The notes beneath the pieces are model-generated. The model was not told where the DNA came from. It was given only the letters and a program-made list of their open reading frames with translations, and did not search any database. From a virus (taxonomy: Duplodnaviria; Caudoviricetes), in the IMG/VR virus record IMGVR_UViG_3300045970_000924, positions 1,749 to 65,748 of that record: DNA of 64,000 nt; one strand, written 5' to 3'. Below, one piece after another: positions 1 through 48,606 of the stretch. Position 1 is the first letter of the stretch; each line of letters opens with the position of its first letter. The translations under genes and the position numbers were made by a program.

Positions 1-60
1 GACAAGACGCCTCCCGGCAACCAGGGTGGGGTGATCGTCCTGCCCGAAGAGAAGGACTGA
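1..60 (+). CDS. 3' end of a gene running in from outside the window, probably terminase small subunit (partial)
   Basis: Frame reads DKTPPGNQGGVIVLPEEKD-stop. A hydrophobic VIVLP C-terminal strand and the position upstream of terL fit TerS. Confidence 0.4.
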   Translation, partial: DKTPPGNQGGVIVLPEEKD

Positions 61-268
61 CAGCGCGCGGTGGCCCTGACGCGCGCCAGTAGCTCGCCCA
101 GGGTCACGCTTTCATCGTCGCGGCCTCGGACTGCGCTTTGCGTATACGTCCGCACGGCGAGTGATTGGCCCGACGCCAGCCCCTCCTGGGGCTCATGTAG
201 CAACCCCCGCGCGCCCAGCGCCGGGGCCTCTCACGGGCTCTCTGGGCGCGCCTGCGGGCCGCCGGAGG

Positions 269-736
269 ATGTCCACTAACCAGGCCGACCGGAGCGCACT
301 CGTGATCCCTCCCGTCAAGGTCGCGCTGGCGACGGGTGCGGCAGCGACCACGGCCGGGGCTGCGGTCTCGCAGTTGCTCGGGGCGGCGGTGCCCGACCAG
401 ATCGCGTGGGTGCTCGGCGGGCTGGTGGCGGTGGGCAGCGCGATCGCGGTGGTGCTCACCGGCTACAACAAGTTCACCGAGACGGTGGACCAGCGGGCCC
501 GAGACCGAGCCCGCGAGGTGGTGCAGGAGAACGCGAAGGCAGCAGCCGAGAAGACCGAGGCGAGCATCGCGGCGGCCATCAAGGACCACTCCCACGAGCA
601 GACCGCAGCGCTGCGCGAGCACATCCATGCTGAGGAGCGGAAGTTCGACGCCATCCTCGCGGAGCTGAAGCTCCAGCGGGCGCAGAACGAAAGCATCATC
701 GAGACCGTGAAGTACCTCCGGTCGCAGAAGACGTAA
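269..736 (+). CDS. Membrane protein with two hydrophobic segments and a coiled-coil C-terminus
   Basis: ATG at 269 in the 161..736 frame; hydrophobic stretches such as IAWVLGGLVAVGSAIAVVL; charged helical tail. Confidence 0.6.
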   Translation: MSTNQADRSALVIPPVKVALATGAAATTAGAAVSQLLGAAVPDQIAWVLGGLVAVGSAIAVVLTGYNKFTETVDQRARDRAREVVQENAKAAAEKTEASIAAAIKDHSHEQTAALREHIHAEERKFDAILAELKLQRAQNESIIETVKYLRSQKT

Positions 737-744
737 CACTCTTT

Positions 745-1062
745 GGGGATGACTGGTTTCGACGAGGGCAGTGAGCAGTACGCAGCGCGCCCCGGGTCGC
801 TCGGGACCGGGTCAACAAACCGAGCACCGCACAAAAGCCAACGACAACGTCGTTTCGCTCAAGTCGTACCGCAGCACCCGCATGGTGAAGCCCAGCGGCG
901 TCGTTCGCAGCAACGCGTTCCAGCTCGCGGCAGCCTAGCTGGATGGTGGAGGCGGCTCTGGCCGCCCCGTAGTGCCCAGCCCGCGGGGTTCGCGGGACAC
1001 GCGCGTAGACCCGTACCGCAAGCAGCTTTCGGACGGCGGTTCGAATCCGCCCATCTCCACCA
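745..1062 (+). ncRNA. ssrA: tmRNA (transfer-messenger RNA), complete and phage-encoded
   Basis: 5' GGGGATG pairs with 3' CATCTCC, including the G3:U alanine identity pair, then discriminator A and CCA (1060-1062). T-arm GGCGGTTCGAATCCGCC. Tag frame 837-938 starts ANDN and ends LAAA-stop. Confidence 0.95.
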
Positions 1063-1132
1063 CCTCCCGATTCGTAGAGCACGGCTCCGCACGGCATCCG
1101 CCGTCGGTGAAGCGCAGAGCATTGGAGGAACT

Positions 1133-1465
1133 ATGGGCGACTTTTCCGTCACGTTCGCTTCGCAGGGCGGCCACGGCTGCGAGCGCAAGGCGAAGGCCGG
1201 TGAGCAGTTCTACGGCTGTGGTCGGCTCGACTGCCCGGACTGCTACGCAGCCGAGCTGGTGCAGCAGTTCCACGCGCGCTTCCCGGTCCACTTCGCCACC
1301 TTCACGCACTGGCCCGTCTCGCTGAACGAGAAGATGGGGCGCAACTACCAGCCCGAGTCCGAGGTGGTGGACTCCATCGTCGAGACGGTGAACTACACCG
1401 GCCGGCAGCCGCTGGTGGTCCCGAACCTCCGCAAGCGGATCAAGGGTCGGTTCAATCCCTCATGA
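1133..1465 (+). CDS. Hypothetical protein with a Cys cluster (GCGRLDCPDC)
   Basis: GGAGG RBS before ATG 1133; stop overlaps the terL start (ATGA). Confidence 0.7.
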   Translation: MGDFSVTFASQGGHGCERKAKAGEQFYGCGRLDCPDCYAAELVQQFHARFPVHFATFTHWPVSLNEKMGRNYQPESEVVDSIVETVNYTGRQPLVVPNLRKRIKGRFNPS

Positions 1466-2883
1466 CCGCGGCGCCGGCGGTAGCTGGCGCGGTGAAGCCG
1501 CTGTGGAAGGCGAACAGCCCACCGCAGCGGCGGTTCCTCGAGACCGGCGCCTACGAGGCGCTGTATGGAGGCGCAGCGGGTGGCGGCAAGTCCGACGCGC
1601 TCCTCGCGGCTGCGCTGCGGTTCGTCCACATCCCGACCTACTCGGCGCTGCTCCTGCGCCGGACGTTCCCCGAGCTCCGCCGCACGCTGATCAAGAAGTC
1701 TCGACTGCTCTACCCAGCTGCCTTCCCCGGCGCGAAGTACCGCAAGGACGAGGCCACCTGGACGTTCCCCTCCGGGGCTACGATCGAGTTCGGCCACGCG
1801 CAGACCGAAGAGGACGTGCACCAGTACCAGGGTGCGGAGTTCCAATTCGTCGGCTTCGATGAGCTCACGCACTTCACCGAGTACCAGTACAAGTACCTGC
1901 TCTCCCGTCTGCGCTCCGTGATGGGGCCAGACGGCAAGGGGCTCATCCCCGTGAGGGTGCGGGCTAGCACCAACCCGGGCGGCCCTGGGCACGAGTGGGT
2001 CATGCGCCGCTGGGCGCCGTGGCTCTGGCGAGAGCCGGGCACGCCCGAGATACCGAAGTGGGACGGCCCGCGCGCGCAAAGCGGCGAGCTGCTCCGTTAC
2101 AGGCTTGAGGAGAACGGCACCGAGACCTGGCTCGATCAGCCCGAGGAGGGCGCGTTCGGTCGGGTGTTCATTCGAGCACTGGCGAGCGACAACCCGGCAC
2201 TGCCGAAAGAGTACCGCACCAGCCTCAACGCCCAGGACGCGCTCACCCGCGCGCAGCTCCGGGACGGCGACTGGCTGGCGCGGGCCGCTGCAGGGCTGCT
2301 CTTCAAGCGGGAGTGGTTCTCCGCGCAGCGAGAGCCGCCGGCGGACGTCGTGGCGCGGATCCGATACTGGGACCGCGCCAGCACCGAGCCGCACGAGAAG
2401 AACCGAGACCCGGACTGGACTGTCGGCGTGAAGCTGAGTCGCACCAGCGAAGGTGTCTACTTCGTGGAGGACGTCGTGCGCGTGCGCGCCCGGCCTCTCG
2501 AGGTGGAGCGGCTCATCCTCGCGACCGCGCTGGGCGACGGCGTCAAGTGCGCGGTGGGCATCGAGCAGGACCCCGGCCAGGCCGGCGTTGCCGACGCAGA
2601 GAACTACACGCGGCTGCTCTCCGGCTTCAACGTCCGGACCTTCAGGCCCACGGGCGACAAGGTGACAAGGGCGCAGCCGGTCTCCGCGCAGTGCGAGGCC
2701 AAGAACGTGAAGCTGGTCGCGGGAAGCTGGCACGGAGCGTTCCTCGGGGTGCTCGAGGAGTTCCCCGACGGCGCACACGACGACGATGTCGACGGCCTCA
2801 GCGGCGCATTCAACGCGATCACGCCCACCGTGGCGGGGCAGAAGCTCTCCCGGCGGCTCGCCCACTTCGCAGGGCAATCCTAG
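1462..2883 (+). CDS. terL: Terminase large subunit
   Basis: Walker A GGAAGGGKS, Walker B FVGFDELTHF, motif III STNPGG, nuclease end FPDGAHDDDVD. Confidence 0.95.
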   Translation: MTAAPAVAGAVKPLWKANSPPQRRFLETGAYEALYGGAAGGGKSDALLAAALRFVHIPTYSALLLRRTFPELRRTLIKKSRLLYPAAFPGAKYRKDEATWTFPSGATIEFGHAQTEEDVHQYQGAEFQFVGFDELTHFTEYQYKYLLSRLRSVMGPDGKGLIPVRVRASTNPGGPGHEWVMRRWAPWLWREPGTPEIPKWDGPRAQSGELLRYRLEENGTETWLDQPEEGAFGRVFIRALASDNPALPKEYRTSLNAQDALTRAQLRDGDWLARAAAGLLFKREWFSAQREPPADVVARIRYWDRASTEPHEKNRDPDWTVGVKLSRTSEGVYFVEDVVRVRARPLEVERLILATALGDGVKCAVGIEQDPGQAGVADAENYTRLLSGFNVRTFRPTGDKVTRAQPVSAQCEAKNVKLVAGSWHGAFLGVLEEFPDGAHDDDVDGLSGAFNAITPTVAGQKLSRRLAHFAGQS

Positions 2884-2892
2884 GAGCAGCTC

Positions 2893-4509
2893 ATGGCCAG
2901 CAGCCCCAAGCCTGCTGGCGCCGGCGAGAAGCTCAAGCTCCGTCTCGACTCGTTCGCCAACAGCCTCACCGGCCTCGGGCTCGCCCGGGACAAGCGCCAG
3001 GGCGGCTACGCTCGCGTCGTCACGGTCGACTACCAGGAGGCGACGGATCTCTACCGCGGCAACGACATGGCCGCGCGCATCGTCGATGCCCTCCCCGAGA
3101 ACTGTCTGCGCGAGGGGTTCGGTGTCTCCATCGAGGGCGACGACGGCCACCAGTTCGCCGAGGCGGTGCAGGCCGCGCTCGAGACGCTGAACGCCGAAGA
3201 GGCGCTCCTGCAGGCCCACAAGTGGAGCCGCGCCTACGGCGGTGCCGGAGTCTTCATCGGCGCCAACGACGGCCAGACGGCCGACCTTCCGCTGGACCTG
3301 AAGCGGGTCAAGAGCGTCGACTTCCTCCTGCCATTCGACACGCTCGAGTTGGTGCCCAACACGTTCTACTGGGACCCGAACCTCGGCGCGAAGTACGGCC
3401 AGCCGGAGACCTACCGCCTCAACCGCTTTGGCTCGATCGGCCTGATGCCCTCGGGTGTCGGCACCCCGCAGATGGGGGCAGGCGCTCTCTCGGCGGTCTC
3501 GGGCAACCCGGCCATCTTGGGCGGCCTGCCGACGATCGCGGCCAGCACCAACTGGCAGTGGCTCCCGGTGGTGCACGAGAGCCGGATCATCCGGTTCGAG
3601 GGCAACTTCACCAACCGCCTCAGCCTGCGCCAGAACCGCTACTGGCCGGACTCGGTGTTCGTTCGCTGCGGCGAGGTGCTGCGAGACTTCGGCCTCTCGT
3701 GGAGCTCGGCCGCGCTGCTCATCCAGGACTTCGTGCAGCAGGTCTACAAGCTGCCTGGGTTCGCGGACATGCTCGCGCAGCAGGGTCCGACGGCGTACGT
3801 CACCGCGGCGTCGATGATCGAGCAGGGCAGGAGCCTGATCCACGCGCTGGTCCTCGACAAGGACGACGAGCTGATCCGGACGCCGCAGCCAGTCACGGGA
3901 CTTCCGGACCTGCTGATCCAGATGGCCAAGCGGCTCGCCGCGGCGGCCGATATGCCGGTGTCGCTCCTCTTCGGCGAGGCTCCGGCGGGCCTCAACGCGA
4001 CTGGAGACACGGACGCGAAGTGGTGGGCGGACAAGTGCCGCGCGGCGCAGCGCAAGAAGCTGAAGCCTGCGATCCGGCGCATCTGCGAGGTGCTCTTCGC
4101 AGCCGCGGAAGGACCCACCAAGGGCAAGCCCATCGGGGGCGACAACTGGGCAGTGACCTTCCCCTCCCTGCTCCAGCTTGACGAGCAGCAGGAGGCGGAC
4201 CTTCGCCAGAAGGTGGCCGCGTCCGACGAGATCTACCTCCGCAACGGGGTGGTCACGCCGGAGGAGGTGGCGATCACCCGGTTCGGCGGCGCCGAGTTCG
4301 ATAGCGGCAAGATCAACCTGGTCGAGACGGACCCGGCCAAGCGCGCGGGGATGGCTGCCGAGGCCGCGGCTGAAGCGGCTGCAGCGGCTGGGGGCGGGAC
4401 CGGCGGAGACGAGCCGGACGGCGATGAAGAGCCGGACGGCGATGAAGAGCCGGACGAGGACGCTGAAGACGAGCCCGACGACGAGGAGGCCGACAAGCCC
4501 GGGAGCTGA
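2893..4509 (+). CDS. Portal protein (DUF1073-type) with acidic C-terminal tail
   Basis: Follows terL; motifs RAYGGA, HESRIIRF, AAAADMPVSLLFGEAPAGLNATGDTD; EPDGDE repeats at the end. Confidence 0.9.
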   Translation: MASSPKPAGAGEKLKLRLDSFANSLTGLGLARDKRQGGYARVVTVDYQEATDLYRGNDMAARIVDALPENCLREGFGVSIEGDDGHQFAEAVQAALETLNAEEALLQAHKWSRAYGGAGVFIGANDGQTADLPLDLKRVKSVDFLLPFDTLELVPNTFYWDPNLGAKYGQPETYRLNRFGSIGLMPSGVGTPQMGAGALSAVSGNPAILGGLPTIAASTNWQWLPVVHESRIIRFEGNFTNRLSLRQNRYWPDSVFVRCGEVLRDFGLSWSSAALLIQDFVQQVYKLPGFADMLAQQGPTAYVTAASMIEQGRSLIHALVLDKDDELIRTPQPVTGLPDLLIQMAKRLAAAADMPVSLLFGEAPAGLNATGDTDAKWWADKCRAAQRKKLKPAIRRICEVLFAAAEGPTKGKPIGGDNWAVTFPSLLQLDEQQEADLRQKVAASDEIYLRNGVVTPEEVAITRFGGAEFDSGKINLVETDPAKRAGMAAEAAAEAAAAAGGGTGGDEPDGDEEPDGDEEPDEDAEDEPDDEEADKPGS

Positions 4510-26749: not shown

Positions 26750-28015
26750 ATGTCCCTCCTGTGGACGCCAGAGCGTGTTGCTGAGGCGCGTGGGCTCGTT
26801 GACGCGCACCTTGGCGACCGGAAGAAGGCCGCCGCCGCCATCACCTCCCGCTGGCGCCACATCGTCACCGTCAACGCGCTCAACAAGGCGCTGCGCAACG
26901 CGACCGAGCGAGAGACGCTGAGCAACCTTCCGGCGTCTCCGGATAGTTGGCCGGACAACGACCCCCTCGATCGCACGGACGAGATGCTGCCGCTCACCGC
27001 GGAGCAGCTTGAAGTAAGCGATCAAAGGGCGCAGCCAAACCCCGCCCTTCGTCCGTTGGAATCGAGAAGTGAAGCCGTAAAAGACCCACCGGAAGAACCG
27101 GAGCCGCGCAAAGCCCAGGCATCCAGCGCCGCCCGGGCTCGAGTGATCCACCCGCCCGAGGGTGGCCTTCCGCTGGCAGACCTGATCAGCCACCGCATCG
27201 CCCGCTACGACGCGAAGGCGCGACAGGAGCGGGGCCGGCGCCTCATCCCGGTGGTGATGCCCGACGATCAGCCGGTCGGCATCCTCCACCTGGGCGACCC
27301 ACACCTCGATGACGACGGCTGCGACCTGCGCAAGGTGCAGGCCCACGCCGAGATCGTCCGCTCCACGCCCGGGCTCTACGCCGCGTGCGTTGGCGATTTC
27401 TCGAATAATTGGATCGGTCGCCTCCAGGCGCTCTACGGGGCGCAGGCGACCACCGAGGGCGAGAGCTGGCGGCTGGTGGAGTGGTTCGTGCGGGACCTGC
27501 TTGGACCGCACTGGCTCTACGCCATCGGCGGCAACCACGACGCGTGGTCCGGCGCAGGCGACCCGCTGCAGTGGATCTGCGGTGCAGCGGGCGTGCTCTA
27601 CCAAGACTCGGAGGTGCGGCTCGAGCTCCGGCTGCCCGGCGGCCACCGCATCCGCATCCACGGCCGGCACGAGTTCAAGGGCCGCTCGATGTACAACGAC
27701 ACGCACGCGCAGATGCGGGCGCTCATCTTCGGCAACCGCGACCACATGGCCATCAGCGGCCACACGCACAAGAGCGGCTACTCGACGCTCAAGTGCCCCG
27801 AGACCGGGATCGCGATGCACGCGCTCCAGGTCGCTGCCTACAAGGACTTCGACCACTACGCGAGGGAGCAGGGCTTCCCCGACAAGGCGCTCGGTCCTTG
27901 CGCGGTCACGGTGATCAACCCGCGCCTCGACCCGCTCCACCCCGACCTGGTCAAGGTGTTCTGGGACCCTACCGAGGGCGCCGACTACCTCACCTTCCTG
28001 CGAGGCCGCAAGTGA
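26750..28015 (+). CDS. Metallophosphoesterase (calcineurin-like)
   Basis: GDPH, VGD, GNHD, GHTH motifs. Confidence 0.85.
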   Translation: MSLLWTPERVAEARGLVDAHLGDRKKAAAAITSRWRHIVTVNALNKALRNATERETLSNLPASPDSWPDNDPLDRTDEMLPLTAEQLEVSDQRAQPNPALRPLESRSEAVKDPPEEPEPRKAQASSAARARVIHPPEGGLPLADLISHRIARYDAKARQERGRRLIPVVMPDDQPVGILHLGDPHLDDDGCDLRKVQAHAEIVRSTPGLYAACVGDFSNNWIGRLQALYGAQATTEGESWRLVEWFVRDLLGPHWLYAIGGNHDAWSGAGDPLQWICGAAGVLYQDSEVRLELRLPGGHRIRIHGRHEFKGRSMYNDTHAQMRALIFGNRDHMAISGHTHKSGYSTLKCPETGIAMHALQVAAYKDFDHYAREQGFPDKALGPCAVTVINPRLDPLHPDLVKVFWDPTEGADYLTFLRGRK

Positions 28016-36020: not shown

Positions 36021-36237
36021 TGTGCGAACTGTGTGCGCCGCCCGGTTCGGCTCCCTCTGGAGACTGCCGCGCGTTACCGAGCTGTCGGCCACCCCGAAAA
36101 CAGACCTAACCAGTTGTCTGCGCTCACGAATCTAGGAATAGAACAGGCCGATTCGTAATCAGCAGGTCATCGGTTCAAATCCGATTGTCGGCTCCACTTT
36201 TTCCCGGCCCACCGCAGCACTGTGCGAACCGTGTGCG
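36021..36237. other. attP: tRNA-Thr(CGT) 3'-half core (36150-36196) flanked by arm-type direct repeats
   Basis: GATTCGTAATCAGCAGGTCATCGGTTCAAATCCGATTGTCGGCTCCA is anticodon loop to CCA with no 5' half. TGTGCGAACYGTGTGCG occurs at 36021 and 36221. Adjacent to the 3' end of int. Confidence 0.88.
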
Positions 36238-36242
36238 GATTT

Positions 36243-37301
36243 TCAGCCCCGGCCACGCAACCCGATGTAGCCCTCGGTGGTCTTCAGGTCGGCGTGCCCA
36301 AGCCACGCCTGGATCTGGCGCAGAGGGATGCCCTGCTCGTGCCAGCGCGTCGCGGCTCCATGCCGCAGGTCGTAGCTGGTGAAGCGTCGAACACCGGCTT
36401 TGCGGCAGGCCCTGGTGAGCGCCCGGCCGAGCTGCTGCGCCTCATCGTCCGGGTAGCGCCGGCCGCAGCACCGGATCGCCGCGTCGATCGCCTCCTTCGG
36501 AACGTGCGTCACCTCGATCGCTCGCAGCGTCTTGCCGTCTGGGTCGCGCAGGATGCCGCGGGCCTTGTCGATGCTGGCGAGGTTGAGCCGCGCGAACGAG
36601 CCCCACCGGAAGCCAGAGCCGCGCAGGACGATCGCGGCGTCCGCCCACTTCGCCGAGAGGAACGGAAGCACGGCGTCGAGCTCCTCGTCCGTCGCCGGAC
36701 GGTGCGGGCGGATGTCCCGGTGCTCCTTGAGCAGATGGACCTTGCGCATCGGGTTCGCGTCCTCAGCGATCTTCTCCAGCCGCACCGCCCACGACATGAG
36801 CGACATCATCGCGGCCAGGTCGCGGTTGACGGCTGCCTCGCCCACCGGGCGCAGCGCATTCGGCAGGGGCAGTCCGTCGGGTCCGCGCTTGGGGCGCTTG
36901 CGCGGGGCCTCGTGCAAGGCGGCGTTGCCTGCCCGGCGCCACGCAATGAACCCGTCGGCGATCGCGACCGTGAACGCCTCCACGGTGGCCACGCCGAGCG
37001 GCGAGAGGTACGCGCCCCAACGCAGGTAGGCCGCCCGCTGCTGGTCGACGTGCTTCTCGCCGTTGGTCGCCTCGCTGTGGACCAGGTAGTCCTTGATCAG
37101 CCCTGCGATGCCGGTGGCGGCTTTTTCGTCGCTTCCCGGAACGTATCCATCAGGGTCTCGCTCGAACCGGGCGAGCTGCTCAAGCGCGCCGGGGAGCGTG
37201 TGGCAGCGCGTCGTCTCGCGATACTCGCGGCCGCTGATCGAGAGGCTGATGTGGTAGACGCGGCCCCGGATGATGCCCCCGACCCACTTCTTGCTTTGCA
37301 C
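36243..37301 (-). CDS. int: Tyrosine integrase
   Basis: GGAGG RBS plus GTG; SGFRWG (catalytic R), YDLRH, LGHADLKTTEGY. Confidence 0.9.
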   Translation of the reverse strand: MQSKKWVGGIIRGRVYHISLSISGREYRETTRCHTLPGALEQLARFERDPDGYVPGSDEKAATGIAGLIKDYLVHSEATNGEKHVDQQRAAYLRWGAYLSPLGVATVEAFTVAIADGFIAWRRAGNAALHEAPRKRPKRGPDGLPLPNALRPVGEAAVNRDLAAMMSLMSWAVRLEKIAEDANPMRKVHLLKEHRDIRPHRPATDEELDAVLPFLSAKWADAAIVLRGSGFRWGSFARLNLASIDKARGILRDPDGKTLRAIEVTHVPKEAIDAAIRCCGRRYPDDEAQQLGRALTRACRKAGVRRFTSYDLRHGAATRWHEQGIPLRQIQAWLGHADLKTTEGYIGLRGRG

Positions 37302-37468
37302 AGGTACGCCTCCACATCTTCGCGCTGGTAGCGGATCTGAGCGCCAACCTTCATCCCGGTCAACTGCCCGTGCCTGCGCAGCGAGCGCACGGTGTCTACG
37401 CTCACCGAGAGCCACTCGGCGACATCGGCGCTGGTGAGAAGCGCGTGCAGGGGTCTGGCTGCGCTCAC
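37097..37468 (-). CDS. xis: Excisionase-like HTH protein; its 3' part overlaps int in another frame
   Basis: LLTSADVAEWLSVSVDTVRSL...G.L...KVGAQIRY; GAGGAG RBS. Confidence 0.75.
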   Translation of the reverse strand: MSAARPLHALLTSADVAEWLSVSVDTVRSLRRHGQLTGMKVGAQIRYQREDVEAYLCKARSGSGASSGAASTTSASRSAAASIARRRAATRSPARLSSSPGSSETLMDTFREATKKPPPASQG

Positions 37469-37740
37469 GGACTGCTCCTCTTGGCACGGATAGCTCGCAG
37501 GACCCCGGTCTTGACCGGCAGATCGTGCTTGCCCATCCGGAAGCCCATCCCGTCGAGCACGCGGGCAACGGCAGCGCGGACGCGCCTTCGCTCGGCGGCT
37601 CGAGCCCGCTGGGCAACGGTGGCGATGATGGTCGGGCGCACCTCGGCAACGAGTGCCCGGTTGCAGGCAGCGCAGCAGTCGACGTACGTCGCGTCCTTGC
37701 TGCGGGGGCGGGACTGGCAGACCTCGCAGGGCCGCTTCAC
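37465..37740 (-). CDS. Small zinc-finger hypothetical protein
   Basis: CEVC...CAAC; overlapping start/stop coupling. Confidence 0.55.
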   Translation of the reverse strand: MKRPCEVCQSRPRSKDATYVDCCAACNRALVAEVRPTIIATVAQRARAAERRRVRAAVARVLDGMGFRMGKHDLPVKTGVLRAIRAKRSSP

Positions 37741-47026: not shown

Positions 47027-47989
47027 CTATTGCCCGATACGGCGGATAGACCGCCGCCAATAGCTGCCCGGCTTCACTTCGTAGCCGCGCCGTTGAACTT
47101 CCTTGCTCGTGATCACGTAGTCGCCCAGCAGCACTTCCTCGGCCCGCGGAAGCGCGTCCTTCAGCTCCTCGTCGAGCGCCTTGAACTCCTTCGCGGCCTC
47201 GGCCAACTCCTCGCGGCGCTCGAGCATCACCAGCAGCTCAGCGTCATCGACCACCTGCACGCCAGGCCCGAACGAGACGTCCGGCAGGCAGACGGTCGCG
47301 AACTGGCACCGGCCGCAGTCCTTGCTCTGCGTCCGCGAGGGCGGCTCGTCGTTCAGCACCGCGAGTTGCACGCGGTCCGCCTTGGCGAGCAGCTCCGCGA
47401 TCCGCGCGTCGTCGCGGGGCACCGCGATGATCGTGGGCCACCCGCTCGCCTTGCTGAAGAGCACGAAGAGGTGGATCTCTTCGTCCGCCAGGAAGAGGTA
47501 CGTGAGCGCCTGATCGACGTAGCGGCGGATGTGAGCGGCCTGATGGTGCCGCATATCGTCCAGCGTCTTGATCCGCTCGCCAACCAAACCAAGACCTTTC
47601 ACCTCACAAGAGACCGCCCGCGGCCATCCCGGCATCCGCACGCGCACGTCGGTGTGCCCACTGATCTGGTGCGCGCGATCCACGTAGTCGCGGCCGCGCT
47701 GCACGATCTCGCAGCCCATGTCCTCGAGCCGGCGGACGACGATCCGCTCCATGTCCTTGCCCAACTCGAAGATCGCCTGAAGCTCCGGCTGGTGCGCCAC
47801 ACGCTCCTCGGCCGGCACCGTCCGCTCGTAGAAGAGAGCGCGCTCGCAGTCGTTGCCGATCGAGCTGGCGCGCGTGTTCGCGCTCGGGCCGTTCTTCTTC
47901 ACCAGCGACTGCATGTAGCGCTGGTACGCGCGCGCCAGGTCGCTCGCGGGGTCGAACGCGGGAGCCTCCATCACGCTGGCCTCGCTCAT
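47027..47989 (-). CDS. Cas4/RecB-like PD-(D/E)xK exonuclease
   Basis: RASSIGNDCER, GHTD...EVK, Q...Y, C-terminal CGRCQFATVC. Confidence 0.8.
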   Translation of the reverse strand: MSEASVMEAPAFDPASDLARAYQRYMQSLVKKNGPSANTRASSIGNDCERALFYERTVPAEERVAHQPELQAIFELGKDMERIVVRRLEDMGCEIVQRGRDYVDRAHQISGHTDVRVRMPGWPRAVSCEVKGLGLVGERIKTLDDMRHHQAAHIRRYVDQALTYLFLADEEIHLFVLFSKASGWPTIIAVPRDDARIAELLAKADRVQLAVLNDEPPSRTQSKDCGRCQFATVCLPDVSFGPGVQVVDDAELLVMLERREELAEAAKEFKALDEELKDALPRAEEVLLGDYVITSKEVQRRGYEVKPGSYWRRSIRRIGQ

Positions 47990-48606
47990 AGCGAGATCCC
48001 GGTGAGGCGAGTGCGCGCGTACTCGCGGTCGCGGTTGCAGGTAGAGCAATAGCGGCCGCGTGCCTTGCCGTACACGAAGTGACGACTGTCGAGGAGGTGT
48101 CCGCGCCGACAGTGGGTCTTTTTGGCGTTCAGCGCAGGGGGCGAGAATCCACGGAACCAATTCACTTTCTGCGTCACCGCCTCGAGGTGCTGCGGGTTGA
48201 TGCAGGAGCGAACCCTGCACAAATGGTCGATCTGGAGACCGCTCGGGATTGGCCCTTTCGCCAATTCAAAGGCGACCCGGTGCGCGTACCGAACACGCCC
48301 GCCGACAGCGACCGTCCCGTATCCGTTGGGGGCGAGGTGCTTCAACCAGAGCGTGCAGCCCGTGTTGGGCTCCGGGATCGAGAAGAGTTCCATCTTGGCG
48401 GCCAACTTCGCCGTGTCGATGACCCCCTTGGGGTGGGCGCTGCATCCGCAGGACAACACGCTGTTCGGCTTGAACTTGGAGGCGTAGAGGTCCCGCTCGG
48501 TCCCGCACGCGCAGCGGCAGCGCAGCAGGCGGCCCTTCATGCCGATGACGGTGAGCTGCCCGTTGACCGCCCCGATCGCGATGGTGCTCTTCACGGCCGC
48601 ACCCAT
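47986..48606 (-). CDS. HNH homing endonuclease
   Basis: CRCACG, PEPNTGCTLW, AHRVAFE, IDHLCRVRSCINPQHLEAVT, KTHCRRGH. Confidence 0.88.
   Translation of the reverse strand: MGAAVKSTIAIGAVNGQLTVIGMKGRLLRCRCACGTERDLYASKFKPNSVLSCGCSAHPKGVIDTAKLAAKMELFSIPEPNTGCTLWLKHLAPNGYGTVAVGGRVRYAHRVAFELAKGPIPSGLQIDHLCRVRSCINPQHLEAVTQKVNWFRGFSPPALNAKKTHCRRGHLLDSRHFVYGKARGRYCSTCNRDREYARTRLTGISL

Follow-up and report, generated by a model that had tools for sequence, protein, structure and literature searches.

The tmRNA gene (ssrA) of 318 nt at positions 745-1062, on the plus strand, of the phage DNA analysed here (the window: 64 kb, bases 1749-65748 of a linear 65,748-nt viral record estimated to be 73% complete) is, on our best reading, functional cargo taken from a host, whose long tag has been selected; the role of the tag's extension is one that we infer. 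We consider it probable that this is a functional phage-borne one-piece tmRNA, descended from a tmRNA of the Myxococcota-type host phylum, and its 22 additional tag residues may alter the fate of the proteins to which they are added. The same long tag recurs in a related prophage and in environmental sequences, so it appears to have been kept on purpose.

ARAGORN calls the gene as a one-piece tmRNA and as the sole RNA gene of the window, and a scan at the Rfam gathering thresholds returns a single match within the window, to RF00023, which spans 745-1062 and the full model (1-374) at 76.6 bits versus a cut-off of 47 (E 5.3e-28). The agreement of the two scans bears out the complete tmRNA that the original prediction had placed at this site, and wherever that prediction's account of the molecule could be checked it proved right. 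The elements of a one-piece tmRNA, all on the plus strand, can be followed along the molecule. The 5′ strand of the acceptor stem (745-751) pairs with 1052-1058 as GGGGAUG/CAUCUCC and includes a G3:U pair, the mark of alanine acceptors; an ACCA 3′ end is encoded in the gene at 1059-1062, and the T arm occupies 1035-1051 (GGCGG UUCGAAU CCGCC, with the T loop GGUUCGAAUCC). When the homologous RNA of a related prophage (locus L290, described below) is compared, two double changes keep the acceptor pairs, and four of the five T-arm pairs are changed on both sides. Helix 2, whose 5′ strand is 763-790 and whose partner lies at approximately 1001-1031 in the minimum free energy (MFE) fold, also carries two double changes (RNAalifold). 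It is followed by the pseudoknot PK1 at 791-825, read from the sequence as stems 791-795/807-811 and 799-804/820-825, with one U-A to A-U change versus L290. An A-rich linker of 11 nt leads from PK1 to the resume codon, GCC at 837, which opens a tag reading frame of 33 codons (837-935) identified by ARAGORN, by identity at the resume site and by codon-position GC. The UAG stop codon of the tag (936-938; ARAGORN and sequence) is contained in a helix 5-like hairpin at 920-942 that holds the end of the tag as well; this hairpin is seen in the sequence and in the MFE fold, and L290 has a hairpin there in another register.

It is in the segment 3′ of the stop that the one-piece pattern is not followed. 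Approximately 60 nt (939-998), the length that had originally been noted as left for the pk2-pk4 region, hold two short hairpins in place of PK2-PK4, and posterior probability in the Rfam alignment is low there. Hairpin A (951-966, GGCGGC/GCCGCC) and hairpin B (980-996) appear both in the MFE fold and in RNAalifold; in L290 the former is kept with one C-G to U-G change, and the latter keeps its stem with a different loop. Variation of PK2-PK4 among lineages, and pseudoknot loss in some, is described in PMC1168896. The stability of the whole-molecule fold is no better than that of shuffled sequences (MFE fold, z 0.23). Two other classes of molecule were considered: a two-piece (permuted) tmRNA is ruled out by the standard gene order in ARAGORN and by RF00023 being the only model that matches in the window, and a TLD-only ssrA decoy of the phage DS6A type is ruled out by the presence of a complete, conserved mRNA-like domain.

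A decoy role could still be envisioned for a complete molecule, which would tie up host SmpB or damp host trans-translation, as has been proposed for mycobacteriophage DS6A with its TLD-only ssrA. No match to the SmpB family turned up anywhere in the 65,748-nt record (itself only 73% complete), which extends the original statement that no smpB is visible in the window; a phage without smpB must compete for that of its host, and according to PMC4131195 a TLD-only molecule inhibits tmRNA strongly. However, a decoy needs neither PK1 nor a resume site, nor an open frame, a stop within a hairpin and a C-terminal AA, all of which are intact in this RNA and conserved in its homologue and in the tag family described below, and we regard such a role as improbable.

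The tag given by ARAGORN is ANDNVVSLKSYRSTRMVKPSGVVRSNAFQLAAA, 33 residues long and exactly as first proposed, with a coding part that runs over positions 93-194 of the gene (837-938 of the window, stop included). It ends in an Ala-rich ...QLAAA, and the C-terminal peptide of tagged chains would contain ...ANDNVVSLKSYR... as a result of tagging. In its reading frame GC at the three codon positions is 0.58/0.48/0.91, like that of this phage's own genes (shuffle p 0.00065 in any frame). The original description of canonical ANDN and LAA ends flanking an insert was sound: alignments place a host-type tag around an in-frame insert of about 22 codons (849-914; ANDN + insert + AFQLAAA), as judged from local alignments in which head and tail both match the same host tag, with weak E-values, and from a further alignment. 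Searches for the origin of this 66-nt insert found no match elsewhere in the phage (blastn-short, tblastn).

How unusual such a tag is depends on the company in which it is placed. Among 30 tmRNAs from the lineage of the first metagenome-assembled genome (MAG), which measure 354-397 nt and score 118-182 bits in Rfam, 29 have tags of 10-12 residues; the thirtieth (L255, with a tag of 27 residues at position 224) is apparently an ARAGORN mis-call and is left out of that statement. In a set of 66 bacterial tmRNAs with the same 5′ 20-mer the tags have 8-25 residues, those of Chloroflexota having 21-25, and in 67 tmRNAs from 80 viral-contig loci they have 8-30 residues, with nine of the 67 at 23 or more. 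The earlier figure of 10-12 residues for a typical tag therefore fits the host lineage and is too narrow beyond it, given the 21-30 residues found in Chloroflexota and phage tmRNAs; among phage tmRNAs a long tag is no rarity. None of the 163 comparison tags collected is as long as the 33-residue one, which nonetheless turns out to be one member of a long-tag family, and this qualifies the original claim of an unusual length. Two large viral contigs (L285:199-640 on 133 kb and L287:243-762 on 110 kb) have ANDN-type tmRNAs lying directly beside tRNA genes, with the tags ANDNGFAVAA and ANDNMYPAASLRAAA, respectively.

Several observations bear on where the gene came from. A 3′ half of tRNA-Thr(CGU) in the phage is found as an exact 45-mer in four genomes (one Myxococcota MAG, one Deltaproteobacteria MAG and two Terracidiphilus MAGs of the Acidobacteriota), and the best relative of the phage terminase among genomes lies in a prophage of a GC-rich Deltaproteobacteria MAG. 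Over its 5′ 100 nt the tmRNA shares 71-78% identity with canonical tmRNAs from the Myxococcota-type phylum, and the 21 nt round the resume codon, CACAAAAGCCAACGACAACGT, recur unchanged in two canonical Myxococcota-type tmRNAs with the tags ANDNVELALAA and ANDNVELAIAA. Taken together, these four lines indicate that the gene descends from a host-type tmRNA, and the host itself is high-GC and myxobacterium-like. The phage RNA shares with the canonical Myxococcota-type SsrA (tag ANDNVELALAA) the tRNA-like domain, helix 2, PK1, the stop within a hairpin and the resume context ACAAAA/GCC AAC GAC AAC GU. It differs in size and score (318 nt and 76.6 bits, as against 354-397 nt and 118-189 bits), in having two hairpins for PK2-PK4, in a tag of 33 residues rather than 10-12, and in being borne by a phage, with its gene near the terminase.

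A homologue was found via a back-translated tag pattern on a 128.7-kb contig of a delta-proteobacterial MAG (G066). This tmRNA, at L290:2909-3227, is 319 nt long, scores 69.5 bits in Rfam, has its resume codon likewise at position 93 and encodes the 32-residue tag ANDNVVSLNEYRKTRMVKPSGRSIGSARLAAA. The gene order tmRNA, small ORF, TerL is common to both phages, whose proteins are related at 49.8% identity for TerL, 54% for the protease, 52% for the sheath and 51% for the baseplate hub. The same contig bears, 26.3 kb off, the canonical tmRNA of the host (365 nt, 188.8 bits, tag ANDNVELALAA), such that this lysogen holds both a short-tag host tmRNA and a long-tag phage tmRNA. On that contig (C41) the canonical ssrA lies at 81546-81911 (L318:5547-5911) and the long-tag tmRNA at 108227-108545 (L319:12228-12546). 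An integrase-like gene lies directly behind the canonical ssrA, from which it follows that this prophage probably integrates into ssrA and carries its own long-tag tmRNA 26 kb inward; the far end of the prophage is lost at the contig end.

Comparison of the two RNAs by RNAalifold gives 72 predicted pairs, with 10 double compensatory changes (six of them in the tRNA-like stems) and none broken. A hand-made structure of 63 pairs is less uniform, with 40 pairs unchanged, nine changed on both sides, four changed on one side and 10 broken; the broken pairs fall mostly in the middle of helix 2 and in helix 5, where L290 and the phage pair in different registers. On this comparative sequence evidence both RNAs are under structural selection. 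Identity is far from even along the molecule: it is 0.61-0.68 in the tRNA-like parts, 0.77 in PK1 and 0.91 in the linker, while tag codons 1-21 agree at 56 of 63 nt (0.89) and the rest of the tag at 0.59, which places the tag head among the two best-kept segments of both RNAs.

Conservation of this kind could reflect an RNA rather than a peptide. One can imagine that the extension matters as RNA, with the 66 extra nucleotides and their hairpins either compensating for the loss of PK2-PK4 in the large loop that must pass round the small ribosomal subunit or gating the resume codon, in which case the peptide would be a by-product. The replacement of PK2-PK4 by two hairpins in a molecule of 318 nt, set against the 354-397 nt of the host lineage, speaks for this account. 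Within codons 1-21 the phage and L290 differ at five codons with only two synonymous changes, and the conserved hairpins predicted by RNAalifold include some within the tag frame (alignment columns 93-116 and 135-155), where a synonymous CGC/CGT change between the two DNAs keeps a pair by turning C-G into U-G. In addition, GUCGUU, which encodes two Val, is the reverse complement of AACGAC (Asn-Asp); over this stretch the head may be conserved for its RNA. The gene-like GC at the codon positions argues against a by-product, as does the behaviour of the tag outside this pair of phages.

Further tags of the same type were traced through ORFs that had been miscalled across tmRNAs in metagenomes. 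A search with the 55-residue tag-bearing ORF yielded two more peptides with the same long tag, and profile searches then added others, to give 15 tags beyond those of the phage and L290 and 17 in all. DNA and context are available for two of the 17 members, the phage and L290, in both of which the reduced RNA architecture is seen; the remaining 15 are represented by peptides from called ORFs. The type can be written as ANDNVVSLxx[YFVA]R plus a stretch that varies and is mostly basic. The 17 tags have 21-36 residues (median 30) and a net charge of 0 to +6, and they end in AA in 16 cases and in VA in one. In the middle they differ freely in both sequence and length, yet stay in frame. Since AA ends persist despite many length changes, the frame has been kept from head to stop, and the survival of a head-to-AA frame through such changes would, as far as the sequences go, be hard to explain unless it is translated. 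The head is moreover preserved behind in-frame upstream residues that differ among members (TK, TN, ID, SN, TR), which suggests different RNA backbones. These features, a mostly basic middle that remains in frame at 21-36 residues, a near-constant end and a head that outlasts its surroundings, speak against an extension that matters as RNA, and we consider that account unlikely, if less so than the decoy. As the tag is conserved in the prophage and in 15 environmental sequences, it is also unlikely that the RNA in fact adds an ordinary short tag, the outcome by which the original prediction would have failed.

Of the 24 new matches in the profile search 12 were examined, and they comprised eight tags of the type, one canonical short tag and one divergent long tag (P0015); those outside the 12 are P0021, P0022, P0025-P0031, P0033, P0034 and P0037. 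The tags of P0005 and P0015 differ (24 residues ending LAAA versus 37 residues ending LALV), and the PK1 region of the two is nearly the same, because they have the same upstream residues, MQRAPDCTEPGQKTVQPTK. The remaining two of the 12, P0023 and P0035 (73 and 45 residues), contain (A)NDNVVSLxxxR near the N-terminus, and their ORFs end unlike a tag; these could be either tmRNAs that lack the normal end or genuine small proteins with the same motif. A search of the representative library gave no member beyond P0005 and P0006, with P0010-P0013 (155-1063 aa, several stretches each) left out. Pfam has no family for seven of the tag ORFs, the Atlas has no named neighbour above 0.9 for the motif, and among the matches listed in a literature search with "NVVSL" all are unrelated by title.

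The neighbourhood of the gene is that of a packaging operon. Upstream, an ORF on the plus strand (161-736) ends 8 nt before the tmRNA; it has no assigned function and no PHROG or Pfam family at E≤0.001, and a Pfam scan at E≤0.01 gave one sub-threshold match, PF04687, at 17.2 bits versus a cut-off of 22.7. Downstream, 70 nt separate the end of the tmRNA from the start at 1133 of a small plus-strand ORF (1133-1465, 110 aa, GGAGGA ribosome-binding site, no PHROG or Pfam family), a tight operon fit, and this is followed by the large terminase subunit (1462-2883, +; phrog_979 at 1.1e-121; PF03237, PF17289). Genes for the portal, a MuF-like protein, the head protease, the tail sheath, the tape measure and the baseplate lie further downstream, and the replication genes run off the right end of the record. 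No sigma-70-like promoter was found in positions 1-3000. The tyrosine integrase is encoded on the minus strand at 36243-37649 (phrog_1 at 3.3e-32; PF00589), and adjoining its stop is the attP-like 3′ half of tRNA-Thr(CGU) (36152-36196, +), which is likely to be the attP core. This integrase and att region lies 35 kb from the tmRNA, in keeping with the original view of the gene as cargo beside packaging genes and not an att remnant. From the gene set and the integrase it follows that the phage is temperate and myovirus-like. It also contains two ordinary temperate-phage recombination genes, one for a Cas4/RecE-like exonuclease (phrog_1990; 47027-48220, -) and one for a DNA-repair exonuclease-like protein (phrog_7339; 26750-28015, +).

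Distribution searches show how sparsely the gene is spread. Identical pieces of the phage (1044-1546, 1662-1812 and 2062-2300, none of them across the tag) are present in a second pond metagenome run, X2, and since that run belongs to another study the phage extends beyond a single sample. Among 50,697 phage records there is no DNA match to the phage. Exact and degenerate patterns run against viral contigs found no family member and one chance locus without a tmRNA, and the 18-mer of the resume site led to six viral loci, which are three ordinary tmRNAs, one permuted tmRNA and two chance matches inside genes. ARAGORN finds a tmRNA near the terminase in none of 42 other terminase-relative loci (23 viral, one genome, 18 metagenome), many of which have little upstream DNA, and Rfam finds none in the seven closest relatives. 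The gene's being missing near these terminases implies that it is dispensable for the wider phage group. In bacterial genomes the long-tag homologue was met only in G066, that is, in one of 401 genomes in the phylum sample, one of 363 in the order and one of 368 in the class (by pattern); the BLAST searches scored only two candidates per genome. The long-tag tmRNA is thus a rare accessory gene.

Such a patchy distribution, together with an Rfam score that is low beside the 118-189 bits of host tmRNAs, might be expected of a decaying host ssrA copy picked up by chance, whose long frame would be an accident of high GC; by our own estimate, the chance that 22 random codons stay open at high GC is about 0.6. 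Decay is nevertheless difficult to square with a gene that occupies the same site in two phages of about 50% protein identity and has accumulated 10 compensatory changes and no broken pair in RNAalifold, or with the conservation of the tag family. A very recent exchange of the gene between L290 and the phage is argued against by the 61-68% identity of the tRNA-like parts. Among the alternatives considered here, we find this one the least credible, and very improbable, and return to a functional tmRNA with a selected tag.

Both phage tmRNAs and long tags are known already. The former have been described (PMC4131195, PMC9004378, PMC7162821) from cluster C mycobacteriophages (Bxz1), Bacillus phage G, Melnitz, pelagimyophages and huge phages, and PMC9004378 counts a tmRNA in 402 of 18,146 phage genomes. 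Like these, the gene reported here is a phage-borne ssrA without an att role; unlike them, as they belong to large lytic phages, its carrier is temperate and of about 66+ kb. The phage-tmRNA literature searched, as far as its accessible text goes, has nothing on long conserved phage tags, nor did we meet in it a family of conserved long tags borne by a minimal tmRNA in temperate phages of the Myxococcota type. As for long tags, PMC8403727 describes a 27-residue ssrA tag in Mycoplasma that is read by Lon. The phage tag resembles this one in being far above the usual length, and in Mycoplasma length accompanies a change of reader. The two also differ: by inspection there is no sequence likeness between them, and the Mycoplasma tags are chromosomal and come from the cell's only tmRNA, whereas the long tag of the phage type coexists with a short-tag tmRNA of the host.

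A plausible course of events can be outlined by analogy to canonical trans-translation. The tmRNA would be transcribed within the late packaging operon and then cut out of the transcript. Host AlaRS would charge it with alanine, and host SmpB, which would be needed because there is no smpB in the record, would deliver it with EF-Tu to stalled ribosomes. Translation would resume at GCC (837) and add the 33 residues, and ribosomes would in this way be rescued during late gene expression. The added peptide can be viewed as three parts, a conserved head (ANDNVVSLxxYRxTRMVKPSG), then a basic linker that varies, and at the C-terminus an LAAA similar to the usual protease signal. Work in E. coli indicates that a tag end of AAA instead of LAA may weaken ClpX recognition. 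The head and the basic stretch may give tagged chains another fate than that of host-tagged ones, for example via another adaptor or protease, as in Mycoplasma, whose extended ssrA tag Gur and Sauer are said to have shown in 2008 to be read by Lon. It is from this precedent that we infer a change of reader, and the rerouting of tagged proteins that the original prediction offered may be a reasonable idea. Its other suggestion, that the RNA replaces a host tmRNA cut by defence nucleases, is neither supported nor contradicted by the data.

Phage tmRNAs are often annotated and hardly studied, and they are commonly seen as a supplement to ribosome rescue. A tag three times as long as the host's, in frame across its family and carried beside an intact host tmRNA in a lysogen, argues for more than such a supplement, and suggests that what becomes of the rescued proteins matters to the phage, beyond the freeing of ribosomes. 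We entertain, tentatively, the bolder idea that a temperate phage lineage marks every rescued chain with its own conserved basic peptide, which another reader (a protease or adaptor, a membrane, a nucleic acid) would recognise or which would spare the chain; were this true, phage-tagged chains would be distinguished from host-tagged ones. With its PK1 and two hairpins the RNA is, moreover, a naturally occurring minimal tmRNA, useful on the question of what the pseudoknot ring is needed for. Overall, a short-tag host tmRNA and a long-tag phage tmRNA on one contig provide a clean natural comparison for the readers of these tags.
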